Below are positions 2,140 to 19,811 of a stretch of DNA of 64,000 nucleotides, piece by piece. The notes under the pieces are model-generated. The model was given only the letters and a program-made list of their open reading frames with translations, had not been told where the DNA came from and did not search any database. The DNA comes from a virus. The stretch spans positions 19,618-83,617 of IMG/VR virus record IMGVR_UViG_3300032050_000072; one strand, given 5' to 3'. Each line of letters opens with the position of its first letter. Within the stretch, counting starts at the first letter, position 1. Both the position numbers and the translations under genes were made by a program.

Positions 2140-2214
2140 GCATCCACCCAGGGAATCGAACCCCGCCACTCGCTTTTGGAGAGCAAGTCGCCAGCCTTGG
2201 TACATTGGCGGATA
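2140..2214 (-). tRNA. tRNA-Trp(CCA), atypical D-arm
   Basis: Acceptor TATCCGC/GTGGATG, anticodon loop CTCCAAA, T-loop GGTTCGATTCC. Confidence 0.7.
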
Positions 2215-2227
2215 TAGATCGCTGATC

Positions 2228-2335
2228 GGCGTTTGCGCTCGTACGTTTTCCAACGGCGGAATCCTTGTTTCGCGGGCGGCATTTCGCTCTAGCCTATAGC
2301 CTTGGCGACGTTCCGCTCGCACCCGGTTTGACGCC
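2228..2335 (-). ncRNA. Candidate structured RNA B between tRNA-Thr and tRNA-Trp
   Basis: Nested pairings GGCGT/ACGCC, TGCG/CGCA, ACGT/ACGT and CCAAGGC/GCCGTTGG form an irregular rod. Confidence 0.4.
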
Positions 2336-2369
2336 CGGTTTTCCGTTTATTCACCAATCAACGATCAAA

Positions 2370-2441
2370 AGCCAGCGGAGGGACTTGAACCCCCGACCCG
2401 CTGTTTACAAAACAGCCGCTCTGCCACTGAGCTACGCGGGC
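2370..2441 (-). tRNA. tRNA-Thr(UGU)
   Basis: GCCCGCGTAGCTCAGTGGCAGAGC...GCTGT-TTTGTAA-ACAGC...GGTTCAAGTCC; canonical cloverleaf. Confidence 0.93.
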
Positions 2442-2450
2442 AATTTCAGG

Positions 2451-2540
2451 CGGAAGCGGTAGGACTCGAACCCACAAGCCGATCTTTCGATTCGGCCACC
2501 TGTTTTCAGGACAGGCCCCTCATCCAGCCGGATCACTTCC
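2451..2540 (-). tRNA. tRNA-Ser(UGA), long variable arm
   Basis: Anticodon arm CCTGT-CCTGAAA-ACAGG, long variable hairpin, G73, T-loop GGTTCGAGTCC. Confidence 0.85.
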
Positions 2541-2547
2541 GTATCAG

Positions 2548-2618
2548 TGGACCGTCGCAGAATCGAACTGCGATCTCCCGGTTGCAGGCCGGGCGTCTTC
2601 CCGTTTGACCAACAGCCC
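2548..2618 (-). tRNA. tRNA-Ala(UGC)
   Basis: Acceptor GGGCTGT/ACGGTCC with G3:U70 and A73; anticodon arm CCCGG-CCTGCAA-CCGGG. Confidence 0.8.
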
Positions 2619-2626
2619 ATTATCAG

Positions 2627-2698
2627 AGTCGCGGGTGGGACTCGAACCCACGGCATCTAGTTTGGAAGACTAGCGTTCTGCCGCTGAACTACCACGAC
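2627..2698 (-). tRNA. tRNA-Gly(UCC)
   Basis: CTAGT-CTTCCAA-ACTAG anticodon arm, U73, T-loop GGTTCGAGTCC. Confidence 0.92.
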
Positions 2699-2706
2699 TT
2701 GTGCGC

Positions 2707-2840
2707 TGCACGGCGATCACATACGCGATCTTTAAGCGGATCAGCCCTAGTGGCAGGTCGACAACTGACTGAGGCTTGAGAATCCTTGTCGCCAGCGAGC
2801 AAGCTCGCGGACGCTGCGGCTAGTGCCGCGTCACCGTGCA
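2707..2840 (-). ncRNA. Candidate structured RNA C between tRNA(CAU) and tRNA-Gly
   Basis: A 10-bp closing stem TGCACGGTGA/TCGCCGTGCA encloses hairpins GCGGC-ACTA-GCCGC, GCGAGC/GCTCGC, CGACAA/TTGTCG and GATC/GATC. Confidence 0.55.
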
Positions 2841-2842
2841 AG

Positions 2843-2916
2843 TGTCAGGGGTGGGACTTGAACCCACGATCTCCAGCTTATGAGGCTGGCGAGATAGCCG
2901 ACTTCTCTACCCTGGC
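2843..2916 (-). tRNA. tRNA with CAU anticodon (Met or Ile2)
   Basis: CCAGC-CTCATAA-GCTGG, T-loop GGTTCAAGTCC; C2:A71 mismatch in the acceptor stem. Confidence 0.85.
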
Positions 2917-9047: not shown

Positions 9048-10565
9048 CTATTTGAGCAAGTCGCTCATTTTCGGCAGGTCGCCAGCGCCAAGCGAAAGAA
9101 CGCCCGGCTCGCGCGTTTCACGGCTCTCAAGATAGGCCCCTGCGTAAGCCACGACATCGACCTGATCGTCATGCGATCCGCGCGGGAATTGCAGCAGTTC
9201 AGCCTCGAAGTCCGACAGCCACGCCGCACCCGATCGGTGGAATACCTTGTGCGATGCGTACCGCGTCAGAACCGCCTCGGATCGCGTGATCTTATCTCTG
9301 GACGCTTTGAGCGCCCGGAACGGCGTGCCGCGAACCTCGCCCGCCTGGATCAAGCCGATACCGGCACCCGTGTCTTCGATCGCCTGGAATGACAACTGCG
9401 GATAGAGCCGCCGCTGGGCAATCATCATCGCATACTGGTCGGGAATCGCCACCCGCTCGCGCCGCATATCGTAGACGAGCAGGTCGTGGTCGGGTGTTCG
9501 TAGAAACGTGCCGACGACCGTGAAGTCGTTTTCCTTGCCGGTCTTCTGGGCCGTGTCGCAGGTCTGGAACCAAGTGCATCGGCTGGCTTCGTATCGCCTT
9601 GAACCGGCATCATCATCGACCACGACGAACTCGACGCCATCGACAAACTCGATTGTGAAGTAGCGGAAGTCCTCCAGCCGGTAGATCGAGCCGGTCAGCG
9701 GGTTTGGTCGCTGCTGCAATTGGCCTGGCGCGTCGAAGCTGAGCCTGATCTTCGACTGATCGACCTTGGCCCTCGGATAAGCCTGCTCCCAGAGTAGTTC
9801 GCCATCGGTCGTGCGCGGATCGGTCCATCCGAGCGATGTCGGCTCCATGCGGTTCGGCTCGAACTCCATAGGCAGAATGATCTTCTCGTAGCCGCCCTGC
9901 CGAATAACGTGACCAGCCAGATCGTCTTCGTGGAGCCGCTGCATGACGATCAACCGCCGCACGCCACGGATTTCACCACGCATCGAGATCGTGCCATCCC
10001 ACCACTCGCGAACTCGCTGCCGCTTGAGCGGCGACCGTGAATCTTCGGCCTTGATCGGATCGTCGCAGATCACAAAGTCGGGATGCTCGCCCGTACCGCG
10101 ACCGCCAATGCTCGTCGCCAATCGCCAGCCGCCATCCGTGTTCTGAAAGCGGGTTTCCTTGTTCTGGTTTCTCAACAGCCGCCCGAACCGTTCACAGTAC
10201 CAGTCGCTCTCGATCACGCTGCGGCAGTTATTCGACGCCTTGGTCGACAAGTCCTGAGCATAGCTCGCCACCAGAAACCTTGCAGACGGCCACCACGTCC
10301 AGACCCAGGCCGGAAACAGAATCGAGCAGAGTAGCGTCTTGGTTGTTCCTGGCGGCTGGTTGATGAGCAGGTTGCCAATCTTGCCGCGAGCCATCGCCTC
10401 CAGGTGATCGCAGATCGCCTCGATGTGCCAATTGTCCATGTAGGTCGAATCTTCGACCTGATTCCAGGCCAACTGCACGAAGTCATAGAAACGACCGCAG
10501 CGACGCCGCGACTCGGCAATGACATCACCACGACCCGGCACAAGCGAGCTACGCATTTTCGCCAC
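9048..10565 (-). CDS. terL: Terminase large subunit
   Basis: NWHIEAIC, Walker A NQPPGTTKT, GTGEHPDFVICDDP, IVMQRLHEDDL, nuclease CDTA and FPRGSHDDQVD. Confidence 0.93.
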   Translation of the reverse strand: MAKMRSSLVPGRGDVIAESRRRCGRFYDFVQLAWNQVEDSTYMDNWHIEAICDHLEAMARGKIGNLLINQPPGTTKTLLCSILFPAWVWTWWPSARFLVASYAQDLSTKASNNCRSVIESDWYCERFGRLLRNQNKETRFQNTDGGWRLATSIGGRGTGEHPDFVICDDPIKAEDSRSPLKRQRVREWWDGTISMRGEIRGVRRLIVMQRLHEDDLAGHVIRQGGYEKIILPMEFEPNRMEPTSLGWTDPRTTDGELLWEQAYPRAKVDQSKIRLSFDAPGQLQQRPNPLTGSIYRLEDFRYFTIEFVDGVEFVVVDDDAGSRRYEASRCTWFQTCDTAQKTGKENDFTVVGTFLRTPDHDLLVYDMRRERVAIPDQYAMMIAQRRLYPQLSFQAIEDTGAGIGLIQAGEVRGTPFRALKASRDKITRSEAVLTRYASHKVFHRSGAAWLSDFEAELLQFPRGSHDDQVDVVAYAGAYLESRETREPGVLSLGAGDLPKMSDLLK

Positions 10566-11076: not shown

Positions 11077-11748
11077 CTAGCCTTCGATCAGCCAGCCAGC
11101 GAAATCGCCAAACCTGAAAACCTCAACGGCGTGCTCGCCGAGAACCTTCGGGTCAATTGGCCTCTGGACGCCAATGAGTGAAATCTCTTTTGCGAGAACC
11201 TCATTGGCTGGAACACCTGATGCGATCTTGCCAGCCAGCGTAAGCCTAGAAAGAACCAGCGACGGATAGCCGCCAGTTGGGTTGCAGCGATCAAATACCA
11301 CGATCACGCCGCCCTTTCGGCAGCGGCATCGCAGCTTGTCCATGAGATCGCGACGCTTGTCGACCGGCACGAACATCAGCGACAGGAATAAGATCGCGAC
11401 ATCAAACGACTGATAATCAAACTTCTCGGCCTGGGCACAAACAAACTCGCCTGGGCCCTCGTATTTAGCCCGCATCGCCTCCGAGTTGTCTACGCCAACC
11501 AGCTTAGCGCCGCGGTCTTCGAGAGTGCCAGCGATCGCCTTGCCGATATTGCCGGTCGAGCAACCGATGTCGTAGACCAAGCCGCCGTCAGGGATATAGT
11601 GCCTTGCCACATGCGACACGACTCCGGTCGTCAAGTCATACCACGGCAACTGCTCGCGAACATGCCTGTCGAACCCGCTAGCGATATCTGCTGTCTTGAA
11701 TGTCCAGTTCCTTGGAATATCGAACCCGACTGCCCCTGCGGTTTCCAT
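11077..11748 (-). CDS. cmoA: CmoA-like SAM-dependent enzyme (candidate carboxy-SAM synthase)
   Basis: NWTF..FDRHVREQLPWYD, YDIGCSTG, GVDNSEAM, LSLMFVP, GGVIVVFDR parallel E. coli CmoA motifs. Start reassigned to ATG 11748 (GGAGG SD). Confidence 0.75.
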   Translation of the reverse strand: METAGAVGFDIPRNWTFKTADIASGFDRHVREQLPWYDLTTGVVSHVARHYIPDGGLVYDIGCSTGNIGKAIAGTLEDRGAKLVGVDNSEAMRAKYEGPGEFVCAQAEKFDYQSFDVAILFLSLMFVPVDKRRDLMDKLRCRCRKGGVIVVFDRCNPTGGYPSLVLSRLTLAGKIASGVPANEVLAKEISLIGVQRPIDPKVLGEHAVEVFRFGDFAGWLIEG

Positions 11749-11749
11749 G

Positions 11750-13117
11750 TCAGTCCTCCGGTAAGTAGCCAAACCTCTTGCGAAGCTCGGAGTTATAGAA
11801 TTTCGTCGGTGAAGCAATTCGCCTTGCGATCTCGTCGGCGACGCCACTGGCTCCTTGAAATGTGTCTTTTGGTCGATTGATGATCCACTTCGGCAAGATC
11901 GACTCTGCCGCCAGCTTGAGCAGTTTCTTGCCAGGAGGCGACTCCGACTTGGTTAATTGCACAGCCGACTCAACAAGCCTCTGCTCCATGAACGGCAGCC
12001 TGCACTCGACTCCGCCAGCCATGAACGCCTTATTGCACCTGACGAAGTTTCCGCGAGACATTTTGGCTAACTGCTCAAGCCTAAGCCGGATCACGCCGTC
12101 GTCGGTTTCGCGGCTGGCTTGGATGCAGAAGTTTCCGTATCCGCCAAACAACTCATCGGCGGCCTCGCCTGACAGGCAAGCCTTAAACCCCTCTGCTGCA
12201 ATCCTTTTCGCAAGCGGAACGCACAGCACGGCGATCTCTATCTGAGCCTTGGATGGAATCTCGATCGACTCCATCGCTTCGGCAATCCCGCGATCAGTTA
12301 TTCCGACAGGAACTTCAAACAGCTTTACCCCAAGGTCACTACACAAGCGTCTAGCACACAGCAAGTCATTAGAACGCTGATCGAAGCTCGCCGTAAAGGC
12401 TACGACCTCGCGACCAGTTTCAACAGCAAGGCCAAGGATTATGCTGCTATCAAGGCCGCCTGAAATTAAGCAGCAGACGGGAGCGTCGGCGCTAAGTCTC
12501 TTTGCAACACCGTCGCGAAGACGACCAAGCACATCGCCATGAGTACACCGTTCCACGCTGGGCATTGAGTACCACTTGCGCCACTCGCCTGTCGTTAAAT
12601 TGAAAGCGAATCCTGCTGGAACAGATATCGCCTTGACGCCAGCCGGAAACGCCTTTCTTTCCGATGCCCACAGATACCCACCGTTATGCTTTGCCACATA
12701 AACTGGAACCTTGCCGAACGAATCTCGCACTAGCCAGCTATCGCCTTTAGATGGAGTCCACGCGAACGCAAACATGCCGTCGAGCATCGGCAAGCAATCC
12801 ATGCCGTGCCTACCGAGCATTGCCGCCAAGACTTCCGTGTCCCCTGTTGTCGCAAACTTCTCACCAGATTCGGCTAGCATCAGCTTTAGCTCGCGGTGAT
12901 TCCAGATTTCGCCATTGAACGTCAGCGTCGACCCATTTCGCACGAACGGCTGAGACGAAAGCTCGGATAGATCAACCAGCGACAGCCGGACATGGCCATG
13001 CACGAAACCGCCATGATTCCTGACGCCGATCCCATCTGGTCCGCGATGCTTGATTTTCTCAAGCATTAAATGCACAGACGACTCAAGCCCGTTCGTCGCG
13101 CCAGCAATTCCGCACAC
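11750..13117 (-). CDS. asnB: Asparagine synthetase B-like glutamine amidotransferase
   Basis: GTG start giving N-terminal CGIAG (Ntn nucleophile), HRGPD, HVRLSLVD, FNGEIWN, LISGGLDSS PP-loop, SGEAADELFGGY, ECRLPF. Confidence 0.9.
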   Translation of the reverse strand: MCGIAGATNGLESSVHLMLEKIKHRGPDGIGVRNHGGFVHGHVRLSLVDLSELSSQPFVRNGSTLTFNGEIWNHRELKLMLAESGEKFATTGDTEVLAAMLGRHGMDCLPMLDGMFAFAWTPSKGDSWLVRDSFGKVPVYVAKHNGGYLWASERKAFPAGVKAISVPAGFAFNLTTGEWRKWYSMPSVERCTHGDVLGRLRDGVAKRLSADAPVCCLISGGLDSSIILGLAVETGREVVAFTASFDQRSNDLLCARRLCSDLGVKLFEVPVGITDRGIAEAMESIEIPSKAQIEIAVLCVPLAKRIAAEGFKACLSGEAADELFGGYGNFCIQASRETDDGVIRLRLEQLAKMSRGNFVRCNKAFMAGGVECRLPFMEQRLVESAVQLTKSESPPGKKLLKLAAESILPKWIINRPKDTFQGASGVADEIARRIASPTKFYNSELRKRFGYLPED

Positions 13118-13121
13118 AAAC

Positions 13122-14444
13122 CTACCCCTGTTTGATCTTCGACAAAATCTGATCTCGAATCGCCGCTGCCACATGCGACATCATTACCGGAGGCACGGCA
13201 CGCCCGAGCCGCTCCCATTGCTGGGCGTAGCTACCAGCTAGAATGAAGTCATCTGGAAATCCGCAGATGCGACGAAGCTCTGCAATCGAGAACTTGCGAC
13301 GCTCGGTTGGATGTGTCACGCCAGCAATTGAACCAGCGCCGCCAGCGGCAGTAATTGTTGGGCATGGTCCGTCTTGATCTGGCCGAACAAGCTGAAAGTA
13401 TTTTTCAGACTGACCTCCAGGGCCGATATTGTCCCACTCCTTGCCGATCGCGAAGCGACTGATATCAGCTTCCTTCTCAATGAAAAGCTGAGGCTTCGTG
13501 GTGACGCATGGCGACGGACGATCAGTGACTTCGCCGTGGCTAAAGCTAGGGTCGGGCGATCCGGTGTCGTGAACCGCCTTCAACTTAAATCCAGCGGTGG
13601 CCTCAACGACAGTTTGATGCTTGCCTTTTCCATTCATGCCGTGAGCCATAACGGTTGGCGAAGGATCGTCGGCGCTGTGCTGACTGACACCAAAGCCGGA
13701 CCTCGCACCAGTGTCGGGGTTGATGCCGGACTCGACGCTATTGATCCACGGAAGCGCGTCGCGAATCGAATAGCGATATGGCAACGGCTTCGGGTGAACC
13801 GGGTCAAGTCCGAGGTCGTTTCTAACGCCGACGAAGATCGTCCGCTGCCTCGCCTGCGGAACCCCGAGCCACTGTGCGTCAAGCACCTTGCACGACACGC
13901 GATAGCCGCACGACTTGAGCTTGGCGAGGATTTCTAGAAAGTACCCCTTGGCCGTGCCTTTGACCAATCCAGATACATTTTCAGCCACAAACGTCTTTGG
14001 CTGCAAGCCTTCGAGTAGCCGGGCGAACTCAAAGAACAGGTCGTCGGTTCGCTGCGCCTTGTCGCTATACTTCTTGACCTTGCCCCAGCCCTTTTCTCGC
14101 TTGCCAGCCGTCGAGAAAGACGCGCATGGCGGCGAACCGTCGAGCAGATCAAGTTCGCCTTGCCGGAGCCCTGTGGCATCAAGGATTTCACTGGCCTTGA
14201 CGAGCCTTATATCACGACCATCAAGAATCGTCGTTGCCGACTTATTGGCGGCATAGCTTTCACGCGCTGAGTCGATAAACTCAGAAGCCCAGACCACCTT
14301 GAACCCAGCCATGCGGTAGCCCAGTGAAGACCCGCCGCAGCCAGAGAATGTAGAAGCAACCTTAAAGCCATTCCAAGGCAGGCCAGCGATTTCAGCCATC
14401 GAAGGCACACGGTACGGTGGCTTGTTATCACTTGCCATTTTCAT
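13122..14444 (-). CDS. C5-cytosine DNA methyltransferase-family protein with motif X Asn->Arg (candidate carboxymethyltransferase)
   Basis: FSGCGG (I), GSPPCASFS (IV), ENVSGL (VI), PQARQR (VIII), RICGFPDDF (IX), LGRAVPP (X). Confidence 0.9.
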   Translation of the reverse strand: MKMASDNKPPYRVPSMAEIAGLPWNGFKVASTFSGCGGSSLGYRMAGFKVVWASEFIDSARESYAANKSATTILDGRDIRLVKASEILDATGLRQGELDLLDGSPPCASFSTAGKREKGWGKVKKYSDKAQRTDDLFFEFARLLEGLQPKTFVAENVSGLVKGTAKGYFLEILAKLKSCGYRVSCKVLDAQWLGVPQARQRTIFVGVRNDLGLDPVHPKPLPYRYSIRDALPWINSVESGINPDTGARSGFGVSQHSADDPSPTVMAHGMNGKGKHQTVVEATAGFKLKAVHDTGSPDPSFSHGEVTDRPSPCVTTKPQLFIEKEADISRFAIGKEWDNIGPGGQSEKYFQLVRPDQDGPCPTITAAGGAGSIAGVTHPTERRKFSIAELRRICGFPDDFILAGSYAQQWERLGRAVPPVMMSHVAAAIRDQILSKIKQG

Positions 14445-14468: not shown

Positions 14469-14999
14469 TCAACTAGACTTTCCACTCCACGAGTAGCCGC
14501 ACTTCGGGCAGCGATGGTCTGTGTTGATCGACTCGTCGACCTCTGGAAAATCAACAGGCGACTCGCTGAGTGGCTCCATTGCTGGAATGGCACCGGCCTT
14601 CTCGGCCAAGCTCGTCACGAGTTGCTGCAAACTCTCGTCACTAAACTGGACACTATCGAGCAACTGGGTCAAAGCACCGGCGTCGGAATCGGCCATCGCG
14701 CCAATTGGGTCCATCGTGGCCAGCAGTTTGTTGGCCTCAAATTCGTCGACATCGAGAATCAAAACAGGCACAAGCTCGTCGGCCCTCGACATGACATCGG
14801 CACGCAGGTGTCCGTCAATAATTTCAAGACGACCATCAATCTCACGGGCAATGACGGCGGAAGCCATTCCGATTTCGCCAATCGCGGCAACCAATGCTTC
14901 GCGCTGCCTGATTCCGTGCCTGCGCCAGTTCTTGTCATTTTCGACAAGATCACAAGCTGGAACCATCCTGAGTTCTTTGACTCGATTTTTAATCGACAT
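14469..14999 (-). CDS. ParB/Srx N-terminal-like protein with C-terminal CPKC zinc ribbon
   Basis: NDKNWRRH, EIIDGHLR, HRCPKCGYSW. Confidence 0.75.
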   Translation of the reverse strand: MSIKNRVKELRMVPACDLVENDKNWRRHGIRQREALVAAIGEIGMASAVIAREIDGRLEIIDGHLRADVMSRADELVPVLILDVDEFEANKLLATMDPIGAMADSDAGALTQLLDSVQFSDESLQQLVTSLAEKAGAIPAMEPLSESPVDFPEVDESINTDHRCPKCGYSWSGKSS

Positions 15000-15400: not shown

Positions 15401-15946
15401 TCAGACCACGCCGGTTTTGATCCCATCGCGGAATTTATTGATTCGATCCACCAGCGACGGCAGGCCGATCAGGTAGCTGCCGAGCCGAATGATCTCACGA
15501 TTCGGCGAGTGCTCGTGCGGGCTCAGTAGCTTCATCGCCTCGTCGACCCCGTAGCGGATGGCCGCGATCACGACCGCCAGCGCCGAACTCCGGCTAATCC
15601 CCATGTGGCAGCAGACCAGCAATCGCCTGCGACCATCAGACCACTTGAGCGCGTGCTGCACTTGCTCCACGCGCGGAGCCCTCCAGTCGGCTTCGTCGCG
15701 TGAGACATCATCCATCGGCAGCCTGAGCGTCAGGCCATCGTTGCCGAAGACCGCAGCCGACAACTGCTTGACGAGTTGCCGCGTCTCTTCGCACGGTCGA
15801 TCTGGATGGTGCATCGCCGTATCGTGACAGGCGATCGCGTCCCACGGGCCTTGCTGGCGGAAATCGTGACCCTCCAGTCCAGTCAGCGCCCGAGCGGCCA
15901 CGGACATCGGCATGATTCTGATCTCGCTGCCGTCGTCGAAGATCAT
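15401..15946 (-). CDS. Predicted protein-tyrosine / dual-specificity phosphatase
   Basis: CX5R motif CHMGISRSSA, upstream MDD loop, HSPN. Confidence 0.8.
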   Translation of the reverse strand: MIFDDGSEIRIMPMSVAARALTGLEGHDFRQQGPWDAIACHDTAMHHPDRPCEETRQLVKQLSAAVFGNDGLTLRLPMDDVSRDEADWRAPRVEQVQHALKWSDGRRRLLVCCHMGISRSSALAVVIAAIRYGVDEAMKLLSPHEHSPNREIIRLGSYLIGLPSLVDRINKFRDGIKTGVV

Positions 15947-18061: not shown

Positions 18062-18088
18062 GTGTCCGCAACTTGTTGCGTGGTTCAG

Positions 18089-18161
18089 CGACCCGAGCAG
18101 GATTCGGACCTGCGACCTGCGGTTTAGGAAACCGCCGCTCTATCCGCTGAGCTACCGAGTC
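18089..18161 (-). tRNA. tRNA-Arg(CCU)
   Basis: GACTCGGTAGCTCAGCGGATAGAGC, GCGGT-TTCCTAA-ACCGC, variant T-loop GTCCGAAT. Confidence 0.88.
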
Positions 18162-18747: not shown

Positions 18748-19811
18748 GATTGACCTCCTTCAAGTGCGACCCGCTCACTGGCGAGATCGCGGTCATTGGC
18801 TTTGGCGGCAGAAAATGCGCTGCCGTATCGCTTCTTGAGCTTGGCGACGTTCCGCTCGATCACCGTCTCGCGTTCGACGCCGAGAATCTTGCGGCACATG
18901 CCCATGTAGAACTCGATCTGCCCGAGCACGCCCGCCGCCTTATCGACGCTGATCGGTCGAGCGTAGAACAGATTCTTCTTGACCAGATCGAGCAGTTCGC
19001 TCGTCTCGATCACCAGATTGCCGAGAGCGTTTTCGTAGGCATCCATTACCGCAGCCGGATCGCTCGGCGGATCGACGACTTTGTAGAACGAGAACATCGC
19101 CGCCCCGGCCACGATCTCGACGCGCGTCATGCCGATCGCCTGCCGCGCCAAGCTGGCGTAGAACTCCAGGTCGCCGAGTTCTTCGATGGCATTGATGCGG
19201 TCGAAGTTGACCGGATCAGGAACGCTCGCCCCGTGCAGCATTTCGCCAACCTCAGTCGACAGGCCCAGAGCCGCGTGCATTAGGTCGCCGGTTTTGCCGA
19301 TCGACTCCATGAAGTCAAAGCCGTCGCCGAGCCCCACGAAGTCCTCGATGGACTCGCCAGGATTCGTGCCCAGGCGTGCCAGGATTGCACCGTACGACGG
19401 TCGGCTGGTGAGTTGGGATACGAACTGGTCGTAGTCGGCATCGCCGCCTAGTGGGCCTGTGGCTGCGTCTGGTGCGTGTTCGGTATTTTGCTCGGTCATG
19501 TTCTCCAAGTCCTTTCGGTCAACAGGGTTATCGAGTTCGTTTTGTTCGGTGTTCGGTTCGGGTTTCGCATCGAACGAACAGCCGAACAGTTCGGTCAGCA
19601 GCTCGGTCGCCGCCTTGGTCATCGCGTAGCGGCGGGCCTCGAATTGTTTCTTCCGCAGGTAGTTGACCCGCTTCGCCATCACGTTCACGAGGTCGATCGC
19701 CTCGCCGCTGGTCGCCACCGCGATCGGCGGGGTTTCCATCGCGAGCATGGCTTCGACAAATGCCTGGGCCAGCCGATCTTGCGACAAGCCCAGGCAGGTT
19801 TCTGGAATCAT
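18744..19811 (-). CDS. MazG-like nucleotide pyrophosphohydrolase (one intact plus one degenerate domain)
   Basis: HAALGLSTEVGE..IEELGDLEFY; second copy IETSELLDLVKK..NVAKLKKRY. Confidence 0.8.
   Translation of the reverse strand: MIPETCLGLSQDRLAQAFVEAMLAMETPPIAVATSGEAIDLVNVMAKRVNYLRKKQFEARRYAMTKAATELLTELFGCSFDAKPEPNTEQNELDNPVDRKDLENMTEQNTEHAPDAATGPLGGDADYDQFVSQLTSRPSYGAILARLGTNPGESIEDFVGLGDGFDFMESIGKTGDLMHAALGLSTEVGEMLHGASVPDPVNFDRINAIEELGDLEFYASLARQAIGMTRVEIVAGAAMFSFYKVVDPPSDPAAVMDAYENALGNLVIETSELLDLVKKNLFYARPISVDKAAGVLGQIEFYMGMCRKILGVERETVIERNVAKLKKRYGSAFSAAKANDRDLASERVALEGGQS

Follow-up and report, generated by a model that had tools for sequence, protein, structure and literature searches.

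A putative Cx-SAM-dependent DNA cytosine carboxymethyltransferase in a four-gene cassette of an uncultured virus, with a predicted amide ligase and a divergent CmoA-like protein

The closest described relative of the locus reported here is the CmoX system of Synechococcus phage S-B43. In this phage, SpCmoX (8YF3) converts cytosine in GC motifs to 5-carboxymethylcytosine (5cxmC), using carboxy-S-adenosyl-methionine (Cx-SAM) that is provided by the phage CmoA (PMC12783734). This work, published in December 2025 (Yang et al., Nat Commun 2025, PMC12783734), settled for that phage that a DNA carboxymethyltransferase dependent on Cx-SAM exists in nature. Wild-type SpCmoX takes Cx-SAM only, and its 1.9 Å structure shows that Arg350, which replaces Asn304 of HhaI, contacts the carboxymethyl group of Cx-SAM through its carboxylate; the R350N variant is inactive (PMC12783734). 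It has also been shown that SpCmoA makes Cx-SAM faster than the Escherichia coli enzyme (EcCmoA), that 5cxmC-containing DNA is protected from HhaI restriction, and that CmoY, an asparagine-synthetase homologue of S-B43, ligates glycine to the carboxylate of 5cxmC (PMC12783734). In addition, 5,615 candidate CmoX proteins were collected from IMG/VR, UniProt and MGnify by their SPPC motif and an arginine at position 350, and on their contigs 4,257 CmoA proteins, 2,251 ligases and 1,660 ParBc proteins were found (PMC12783734). Here, a CmoX homologue is described from a stretch of 64,000 nucleotides (the window), which covers positions 19,618 to 83,617 of the IMG/VR virus record IMGVR_UViG_3300032050_000072, together with the neighbouring genes with which it forms a cassette.

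The cassette is tightly packed on the minus strand, in the order ParB-like, CmoX, AsnB-like (CmoY type) and CmoA-like, and the terminase genes follow it:
14469..14999, minus strand: ParB N-terminal-domain-like protein of 176 amino acids, which opens the cassette and carries a CxxC in its C-terminal part (weak PF02195 match)
13122..14444, minus strand: CmoX-type DNA cytosine C5-carboxymethyltransferase homologue of 440 amino acids (PF00145, TIGR00675, 8yf3)
11750..13117, minus strand: CmoY-type amide ligase of 455 amino acids with an N-terminal glutamine amidotransferase domain, AsnB-like (PF00733, PF13522, PF13537)
11077..11748, minus strand: CmoA-like (carboxy-SAM synthase-like) class I methyltransferase-fold protein of 223 amino acids (TIGR00740, CmoA structures)

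It is proposed, with a probability of about 85%, that the CmoX-type enzyme of this four-gene cassette writes 5cxmC from Cx-SAM into the phage DNA. The present analysis shows the features of the sequence, its homology and the linkage of the genes; the chemistry of the first two steps and the glycine version of the third were shown for S-B43. In the first step, the CmoA-like protein would make Cx-SAM from S-adenosyl-methionine (SAM) and prephenate of the host. In the second step, Cys107 of CmoX would attack C6 of a flipped-out cytosine, after which the carboxymethyl group would be transferred to C5; Arg415 would form a salt bridge to the carboxylate of the cofactor, and Ala108 would probably make room and disfavour the transfer of a plain methyl group. 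In the third step, Cys2 of CmoY would hydrolyse glutamine, the PP-loop would adenylate the carboxylate of 5cxmC, and ammonia would cap it to yield 5-carbamoylmethylcytosine. This amide step has been predicted in print for the ligase class and is considered rather probable here.

The identity of the transferase is supported by several searches. The ORF (open reading frame) at 13122..14444 matches PF00145 (C-5 cytosine DNA methylase) with an E value of 1.8e-55 and 189 bits (cut-off 22) over positions 1-322 of 324, and the NCBIfam family TIGR00675 (dcm superfamily) with an E value of 1.2e-46; it is the sole PF00145 match in the whole 83.6-kb record. Its top solved relative is SpCmoX (8yf3) with an E value of 1.4e-68, the runner-up being at 1e-23, and the two proteins share 43-44% identity. 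A first-pass annotation had noticed that motif X of this protein reads LGRAVPP, and a direct read of the minus strand gives the same result: positions 13208..13188 are ctc ggg cgt gcc gtg cct ccg, translating to L-G-R-A-V-P-P, and the arginine codon CGT at 13202..13200 specifies residue 415. That this arginine takes the place of the motif X asparagine is confirmed by alignment. In HMMER alignments, Arg415 stands opposite the asparagine of HaeIII ('iGNAVP') and DNMT1 ('vGNAVPP') and opposite the arginine of 8yf3_A ('vGRmVPP'), and in a MAFFT alignment of the window protein, E. coli Dcm, SpCmoX and gp123 of Streptomyces phage TurkishDelight, it falls in the column of Dcm Asn436 and SpCmoX Arg350. 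The equivalence to HhaI N304 is taken from the structural overlay in PMC12783734 and not from an alignment made here. The following motifs were located:
14121..14135, minus strand: motif IV, S104-P-P-C107-A108, with the catalytic cysteine and an alanine replacing the usual glutamine, in the columns of SpCmoX S95-P-P-C98-S99 and Dcm G-F-P-C177-Q178
13974..13982, minus strand: motif VI, E155-N-V157, invariant across Dcm, SpCmoX and TurkishDelight gp123
13842..13856, minus strand: motif VIII, Q197-A-R199-Q-R201, of which Q, R and R are invariant in the same four-sequence alignment
13188..13208, minus strand: motif X, L-G-R415-A-V-P-P, with CGT at 13200..13202

The earlier statement that all other motifs are intact holds for the FxGxG of motif I (F33-G38), the PC cysteine of motif IV (C107), the ENV of motif VI (155-157) and the QxRxR of motif VIII (197-201). 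It does not hold for the motif IV glutamine (Dcm Q178), which is Ala108 in the window protein. Both features by which PMC12783734 recognized CmoX candidates are found here, namely SPPC (S104-C107) and an arginine at the R350 column. The motif X column holds arginine in 68 of the 150 representatives from clusters at 50% identity; among related viral loci, it does so in 74 of 80 and in 12 of another 14. Because the residue recurs in this way, Arg415 is neither a read error nor a chance substitution, in line with the first-pass argument that a change from AAT or AAC to CGT needs two base changes. When 11 kb of sequence spanning the gene were compared by megablast with 50,697 phage records, no match was obtained, and the relatives in that collection were detected at the protein level only. 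The same annotation had cited engineered enzymes as precedents. M.MpeI N374K was confirmed in two papers; 'Dcm N436K' did not turn up in any of the methyltransferase papers searched.

The neighbourhood of the gene is consistent with a CmoA partner. In a scan of IMG/VR, 80 loci with relatives of the transferase at 49-68% identity were recovered, and 14 further loci came from other queries. CmoA was called as a neighbour when any one of four CmoA queries gave a tblastn match at E <= 1e-5 in the flank. Among the 80 loci, motif X carries arginine in 74 and asparagine in 6, and CmoA lies in the flank of 74/74 of the former vs 0/6 of the latter, all six of which have at least 2.4 kb of downstream sequence covered. 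The 14 further loci gave CmoA at 12/12 arginine-type, 0/1 asparagine-type and 0/1 Glu/Asp-type transferases. Pooled over the 94 viral loci, CmoA adjoins 86/86 arginine-type, 0/7 asparagine-type and 0/1 Glu/Asp-type genes, so that the co-segregation of a GR motif X with cmoA neighbours, put forward as a check in the first-pass annotation, is borne out (86/86 vs 0/8 others). Two asparagine-type queries led to 11 loci, of which 10 were arginine-type and one (L098, with about 0.7 kb of downstream sequence covered) was asparagine-type. The homology to SpCmoX, the presence of the same types of neighbouring genes and this co-segregation together support the reading of a natural carboxy-SAM DNA carboxymethyltransferase with a CmoA partner, but that activity has already been published for another phage.

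Related loci also occur in named phages. In the cultured Moraxella phage Mcat8 (L085 4022..5729) and the cultured Pseudomonas phage PaBG (L086 3983..7137), the CmoX-CmoA pairs are annotated as hypothetical or as 'tRNA (cmo5U34)-methyltransferase', and the hosts of both are clinically studied. The order in Mcat8 is ParB-like, CmoX, CmoA, one small gene and terminase, and its CmoA is of the window class, with 49.5% identity. In PaBG, the order is ParB, CmoX, CmoA, one small gene and a short ligase, and the CmoA is of the E. coli-like class. Erwinia phage pEa_SNUABM_13 (L087 4019..6154) encodes an arginine-type transferase of 711 amino acids with an apparent intein at the catalytic cysteine (SPP/C...HN/CKGFS); a CmoA homologue was not found within 4 kb of this gene.

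A second pocket residue changes together with motif X. In the family alignment, the residue after the catalytic cysteine is alanine or serine in 71 of 71 arginine-type rows and glutamine in all six asparagine-type rows. Few columns separate the two types fully: motif X, the post-cysteine residue and five positions (S127, D128, R132, T133 and D135) in a loop between motifs IV and V. The comparison was extended to the 150 representatives, 6 of which were unreadable at one of the columns, and the following pairs of post-cysteine and motif X residues were counted:
Q after the cysteine, N at motif X: 50 representatives
A after the cysteine, R at motif X: 44 representatives
S after the cysteine, R at motif X: 18 representatives
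T after the cysteine, R at motif X: 3 representatives
C after the cysteine, R at motif X: 2 representatives
G after the cysteine, R at motif X: 1 representative
T after the cysteine, N at motif X: 7 representatives
V after the cysteine, N at motif X: 5 representatives
E after the cysteine, N at motif X: 2 representatives
E after the cysteine, D at motif X: 7 representatives
D after the cysteine, L, Q, Y or M at motif X: 4 representatives
A after the cysteine, Q at motif X: 1 representative

Thus, no arginine-type representative has a glutamine after the cysteine (0/68), and 50 of 64 asparagine-type representatives do. Lysine follows the catalytic cysteine in PaBG and in an Erwinia jumbo phage. 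In M.HhaI, the transferable group has Gln82, Tyr254 and Asn304 at its sides; the Q82A change lowers methylation about 16-fold and favours larger cofactors (PMC3526304). The terms 'Gln', 'PCQ' and 'motif IV' do not occur in the main text of PMC12783734. It may be that nature has paired a space-opening change with a cationic one, which may explain why SpCmoX rejects SAM; in such a two-residue switch, the replacement of the motif IV glutamine by alanine or serine, combined with that of the motif X asparagine by arginine, would give a strict preference for Cx-SAM. The lost glutamine also bears on another explanation, under which the window enzyme would make 5-methylcytosine from SAM in the usual way, would tolerate the arginine in motif X and would have no connection to the genes around it. 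Such an enzyme would be expected to have all catalytic motifs of the C5-methyltransferases, as the window protein has, and engineered M.CviPI variants with lysine or arginine, in which the other pocket residues are kept, still methylate with SAM (PMC13288465). This explanation is nevertheless extremely improbable, given that the wild-type natural enzyme SpCmoX is restricted to Cx-SAM (PMC12783734), that CmoA accompanies all 86 arginine-type loci and none of the other 8, and that the glutamine most important for methyl transfer in M.HhaI is lost as well.

The Glu/Asp type (SPPCE with GD[AS]VP) makes up 7 of the 150 representatives (P0084, P0087, P0098, P0117, P0124, P0133 and P0142). A protein-pattern scan for this type gave arginine-type loci only. 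L090 (8583..10460, minus strand), the one locus obtained with a DNA pattern, has the order HNH, ParB, transferase, small terminase and large terminase. A CmoA or AsnB homologue was not found at this locus. These relatives may simply methylate or may use another cofactor, because the changes from glutamine to glutamate and from asparagine to aspartate are isosteric. In the latter case, the Glu/Asp pairs, and also the pairs of aspartate with other residues, may mark further cofactor chemistries in the same subfamily.

A separate observation was made in the variable region of the window transferase. Normally a single D-x-P-[SC]-P-[TC]-[VI] motif precedes motif IX, but here it is present in three copies about 50 residues apart (residues 259, 308 and 358). 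At least three copies are found in 10 of 78 family rows including the window, and most rows have one copy. The triple motif may represent a duplicated target-recognition module. The segments around the three copies align weakly (z scores of 4.3, 1.7 and 1.0), too weakly for tandem target-recognition modules to be claimed.

Several points weigh against the proposal that 5cxmC is written by this cassette. The window protein is known from an uncultured IMG/VR record by sequence alone. The six asparagine-type loci form one well-supported clade in a tree of 78 rows, which holds 74 of the 80 loci together with the window, TurkishDelight, S-B43 and Dcm (six arginine-type loci, in which the gene was not recovered, were left out), and the counts are thus not independent; therefore, the contrast in co-segregation reflects one or two events. 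The long branch of S-B43 is drawn into the asparagine clade in this tree, which is probably an artefact. The covariation of arginine with the loss of glutamine comes down to 7 independent pairs, of which about 4 change in the same direction, none in the opposite direction and about 3 show no difference (median p 0.125); this test is underpowered and used a FastTree tree of 145 of the 150 representatives plus the window, with 6 left out for an unreadable column. The CmoA-like protein scores 52.2 bits against a cut-off of 193.3 for TIGR00740 and 33 bits against 285 for NF011995, and a glutamate takes the place of EcCmoA Arg199 in the alignment. For the amide step there is only a prediction, made for a ligase class that was insoluble in the hands of the authors of PMC12783734, and 40 of the 74 arginine-type loci have no ligase within the flank covered.

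The CmoA-like protein starts with ATG at 11748, 1 nt past the CmoY stop codon TGA at 11752..11750, and its homologues have 212-214 amino acids. Its top NCBIfam family is TIGR00740 (CmoA) with an E value of 6.2e-14, and its top matches among solved structures are the CmoA structures 4gek, 1im8 and 4iwn (E values of 1e-9 to 2e-8), with 21% identity to EcCmoA and 22% to SpCmoA. In an alignment of 71 CmoA rows that includes both of these enzymes, the residues D93, G95, G99, F50, F59, F159, R165, K207 and K220 are invariant (71/71), and S97 (64/71), W48, P68 and M125 (70/71 each) and Y70 (69/71) are nearly so. The DxGxSxG motif is common to EcCmoA and the window class. One segment requires attention:
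11161..11187, minus strand: CmoA segment K-E-I-S-L-I-G-V-Q-R, in which E221 (numbering of the long ORF 11077..11847) occupies the EcCmoA Arg199 column and R229 stands eight columns on

Arg199 of EcCmoA is the sole residue contacting the carboxylate of Cx-SAM (PMC4482062). The column was assigned in a four-sequence MAFFT alignment and was unchanged when this was repeated with 71 rows. It holds glutamate in 50 of 71 rows and arginine in 17. When the Arg199 column is paired with the column eight positions on, E,R is found in 49 rows and R,V in 16 rows, and the active SpCmoA has E,K; a basic residue follows the glutamate eight columns later in all 50 glutamate rows (R in 49, K in 1). Since the active SpCmoA also has a glutamate here, this residue need not speak against function, and Arg199 may be relocated or dispensable in the window class. 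Furthermore, CmoA genes of the window class and of the E. coli class occupy the same position beside arginine-type transferases. Because of this shared position and the E,K pair of active SpCmoA, the window protein is taken as a putative Cx-SAM synthase of a divergent class; its scores fall short of those that the curated CmoA family requires. The same data allow another reading, in which the product of the CmoA-like protein would be some other derivative of SAM, or the protein would be a methyltransferase of the usual kind, and the transferase would move another group or use Cx-SAM of the host. The score of 52.2 bits against 193.3, the 21% identity to EcCmoA and the glutamate would fit such a protein. 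However, the proven Cx-SAM maker SpCmoA has the same glutamate, with lysine eight columns on, where the window class has arginine; moreover, the two CmoA classes are interchangeable beside arginine-type transferases, CmoA is the best-scoring family and structure, and the transferase retains the arginine that binds the carboxylate. This reading is thus very improbable, and a Cx-SAM synthase is preferred.

The ligase gene starts with GTG at 13117..13115, 4 nt past the CmoX stop codon, and the protein begins with M-C-G-I-A-G, as in class II amidotransferases. It matches PF00733 with an E value of 1.8e-40 and E. coli AsnB (1ct9) with 1.8e-41. It is about 100 amino acids shorter than AsnB and falls below the cut-offs of TIGR01536 (261.2 bits against 267.1) and of the AsnB equivalog NF006949 (242 bits against 499), and on these sequence comparisons it is a relative of AsnB and not an AsnB orthologue. 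The residues R44, N68, G69, E70 and D93 align with R49, N74, G75, E76 and D98 of AsnB. These glutaminase residues and the N-terminal Cys2 are kept in 28 of 28 full-length homologues of the amidotransferase type, in all of which E318 is also conserved, and the SGGLDS PP-loop (residues 219-224) is kept in 29 of 29 long homologues. At the 74 arginine-type loci, 27 ligases are of the amidotransferase type and 7 are short and S-B43-like, and 40 loci have none within the flank covered. In PMC12783734, the second-largest cluster of CmoY ligases is described as having a glutamine-hydrolysing domain, with ammonia as the predicted substrate; the authors obtained no soluble enzyme. The architecture of the window protein matches the description of this cluster (that of A0A7T0Q3R0), and the gene at 11750..13117 (minus strand) is read as this glutamine-using CmoY type. 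Literature searches found no report of 5-carbamoylmethylcytosine in DNA.

The end product could also be a different one. In this case, CmoX would make 5cxmC, and the AsnB-like enzyme would attach another amine, act on another substrate or be an auxiliary asparagine synthetase, leaving 5cxmC or another amide as the final base. The only characterised CmoY, that of S-B43, attaches glycine, has no amidotransferase domain and is 20% identical to the window protein; the 40 loci without a ligase indicate that 5cxmC can be an end product, and the use of ammonia by glutamine-type CmoY proteins is a prediction. On the other hand, the window gene is flanked by CmoX, 4 nt away, and CmoA, 1 nt away, and the same place is taken in 27 of 74 loci and in TurkishDelight. 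The retention of all glutaminase residues and of the N-terminal cysteine makes sense only with ammonia as the nucleophile, and an asparagine synthetase is disfavoured by the missing length of about 100 amino acids and by the 242 bits against the equivalog cut-off of 499. This alternative is considered unlikely, and the amide remains the preferred product of the ligase.

The setting of the cassette gives some indications of its role. The source record of 83,617 bases is rated complete by CheckV, has a GC content of about 55-62% and carries nearly all genes on the minus strand; in the composition profile, the GC fraction is 0.554-0.559 at 12-16 kb of the window vs about 0.57-0.62 elsewhere. Chorismate mutase (PF01817) was not found in the phage record, and therefore prephenate must be supplied by the host. 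The PF02195 match of the ParB-like protein is weak (E value 0.0017, 18.8 bits, under the cut-off of 26.3). Its homologues, as detected by tblastn, adjoin the transferase in 67 of 74 arginine-type and in 6 of 6 asparagine-type loci, and ParBc proteins are present on many CmoX contigs, with a role that is unknown according to the authors (PMC12783734). Directly downstream of the cassette, on the same strand, are the terminase genes, a placement that is alike in Moraxella phage Mcat8:
10549..11061, minus strand: protein of 170 amino acids, probably the small terminase, by position only, with no Pfam match
9048..10565, minus strand: large terminase, weak PF17289 (Terminase_6C) match, E value 0.0053

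Given the position of the cassette immediately ahead of the terminase genes, the phage DNA is probably marked before or during packaging. The modification would most likely blunt host restriction. The window also holds seven tRNA genes, and upstream of the cassette an ORF of 181 amino acids (15401..15946, minus strand) contains C-H-M-G-I-S-R-S, which by eye resembles the CX5R of cysteine-based phosphatases:
2140..2916, minus strand: cluster of six tRNA genes (Trp, Thr, Ser, Ala, Gly, Met)
18088..18161, minus strand: tRNA-Arg(CCT), separate

The window transferase is one more among several thousand CmoX candidates. Beyond the main text of PMC12783734, the present analysis adds the loss of the motif IV glutamine, the divergent CmoA class and the predicted 5-carbamoylmethylcytosine. 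The joint proposal, in which phage DNA carries 5-carbamoylmethylcytosine, two residues act as the switch, the other residue pairs reflect further chemistries and the CmoA arginine has moved by eight positions, is tentative and is given somewhat less than even odds. The cassette is a complete and compact version with a glutamine-type ligase, and given that the published representative was insoluble, the window orthologue and its 27 relatives are fresh candidates for expression. The loss of glutamine together with the gain of arginine suggests why the natural enzymes reject SAM and engineered enzymes with asparagine changed to lysine or arginine keep methylating, which is relevant to sequencing tools built on such enzymes. 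In addition, the CmoA class with glutamate at the Arg199 column broadens the sequence definition of Cx-SAM synthases.

Compared with S-B43, the window locus has the same C5-methyltransferase fold, the SPPC motif, Arg415 at the position of R350, adjacent genes of the CmoA type and the AsnB superfamily, and ParB-like proteins nearby. In contrast, the variable region of the window transferase is about 60-70 amino acids longer, and the gene order is ParB-CmoX-CmoY-CmoA next to the terminase, whereas it is CmoA-CmoY-CmoX in S-B43. CmoY of S-B43, with 20% identity and no amidotransferase domain, forms a glycine adduct, whereas the window ligase has this domain and is predicted to form an amide. A closer match in gene order is found in the cultured Streptomyces phage TurkishDelight (NC_073473.1), where gp121-125 encode ParB, ParB, a GR-type transferase, a GATase/AsnB-like protein (GATase, glutamine amidotransferase) and a CmoA-like protein in the same order as the window. 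The transferases are 54-59% identical over 99% of the length, the CmoY proteins 37% and the CmoA proteins 28-30%, and the CmoA of TurkishDelight has Ala/Arg, not Glu, at the Arg199 region. The annotation of gp121-125 gives only ParB-like, methyltransferase and glutamine amidotransferase domain.

Among the engineered enzymes, M.MpeI N374K and M.CviPI Y205K/R (Kohli laboratory; PMC13288465) have, like the window protein, a positively charged residue at the structural equivalent of the motif X asparagine, which enables the use of Cx-SAM. The engineered enzymes keep SAM methylation, whereas in the natural family the arginine goes along with the loss of the motif IV glutamine, and SpCmoX takes Cx-SAM only. 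In M.HhaI Q82A/Y254S/N304A (Lukinavicius et al., NAR 2012, PMC3526304), the same two flanking positions are altered as in natural CmoX; in these steric variants, which were made for extended SAM analogues, alanine at both positions opens space, whereas in CmoX the arginine at motif X would bind a carboxylate. E. coli CmoA (4GEK) has the SAM-binding motif and several CmoA-specific aromatic and basic residues in common with the window CmoA, in which Arg199 is replaced by glutamate. Likewise, E. coli AsnB (1CT9) and the window CmoY share the glutaminase and PP-loop residues, and the substrate of the window enzyme is presumed to be a DNA base and not aspartate.

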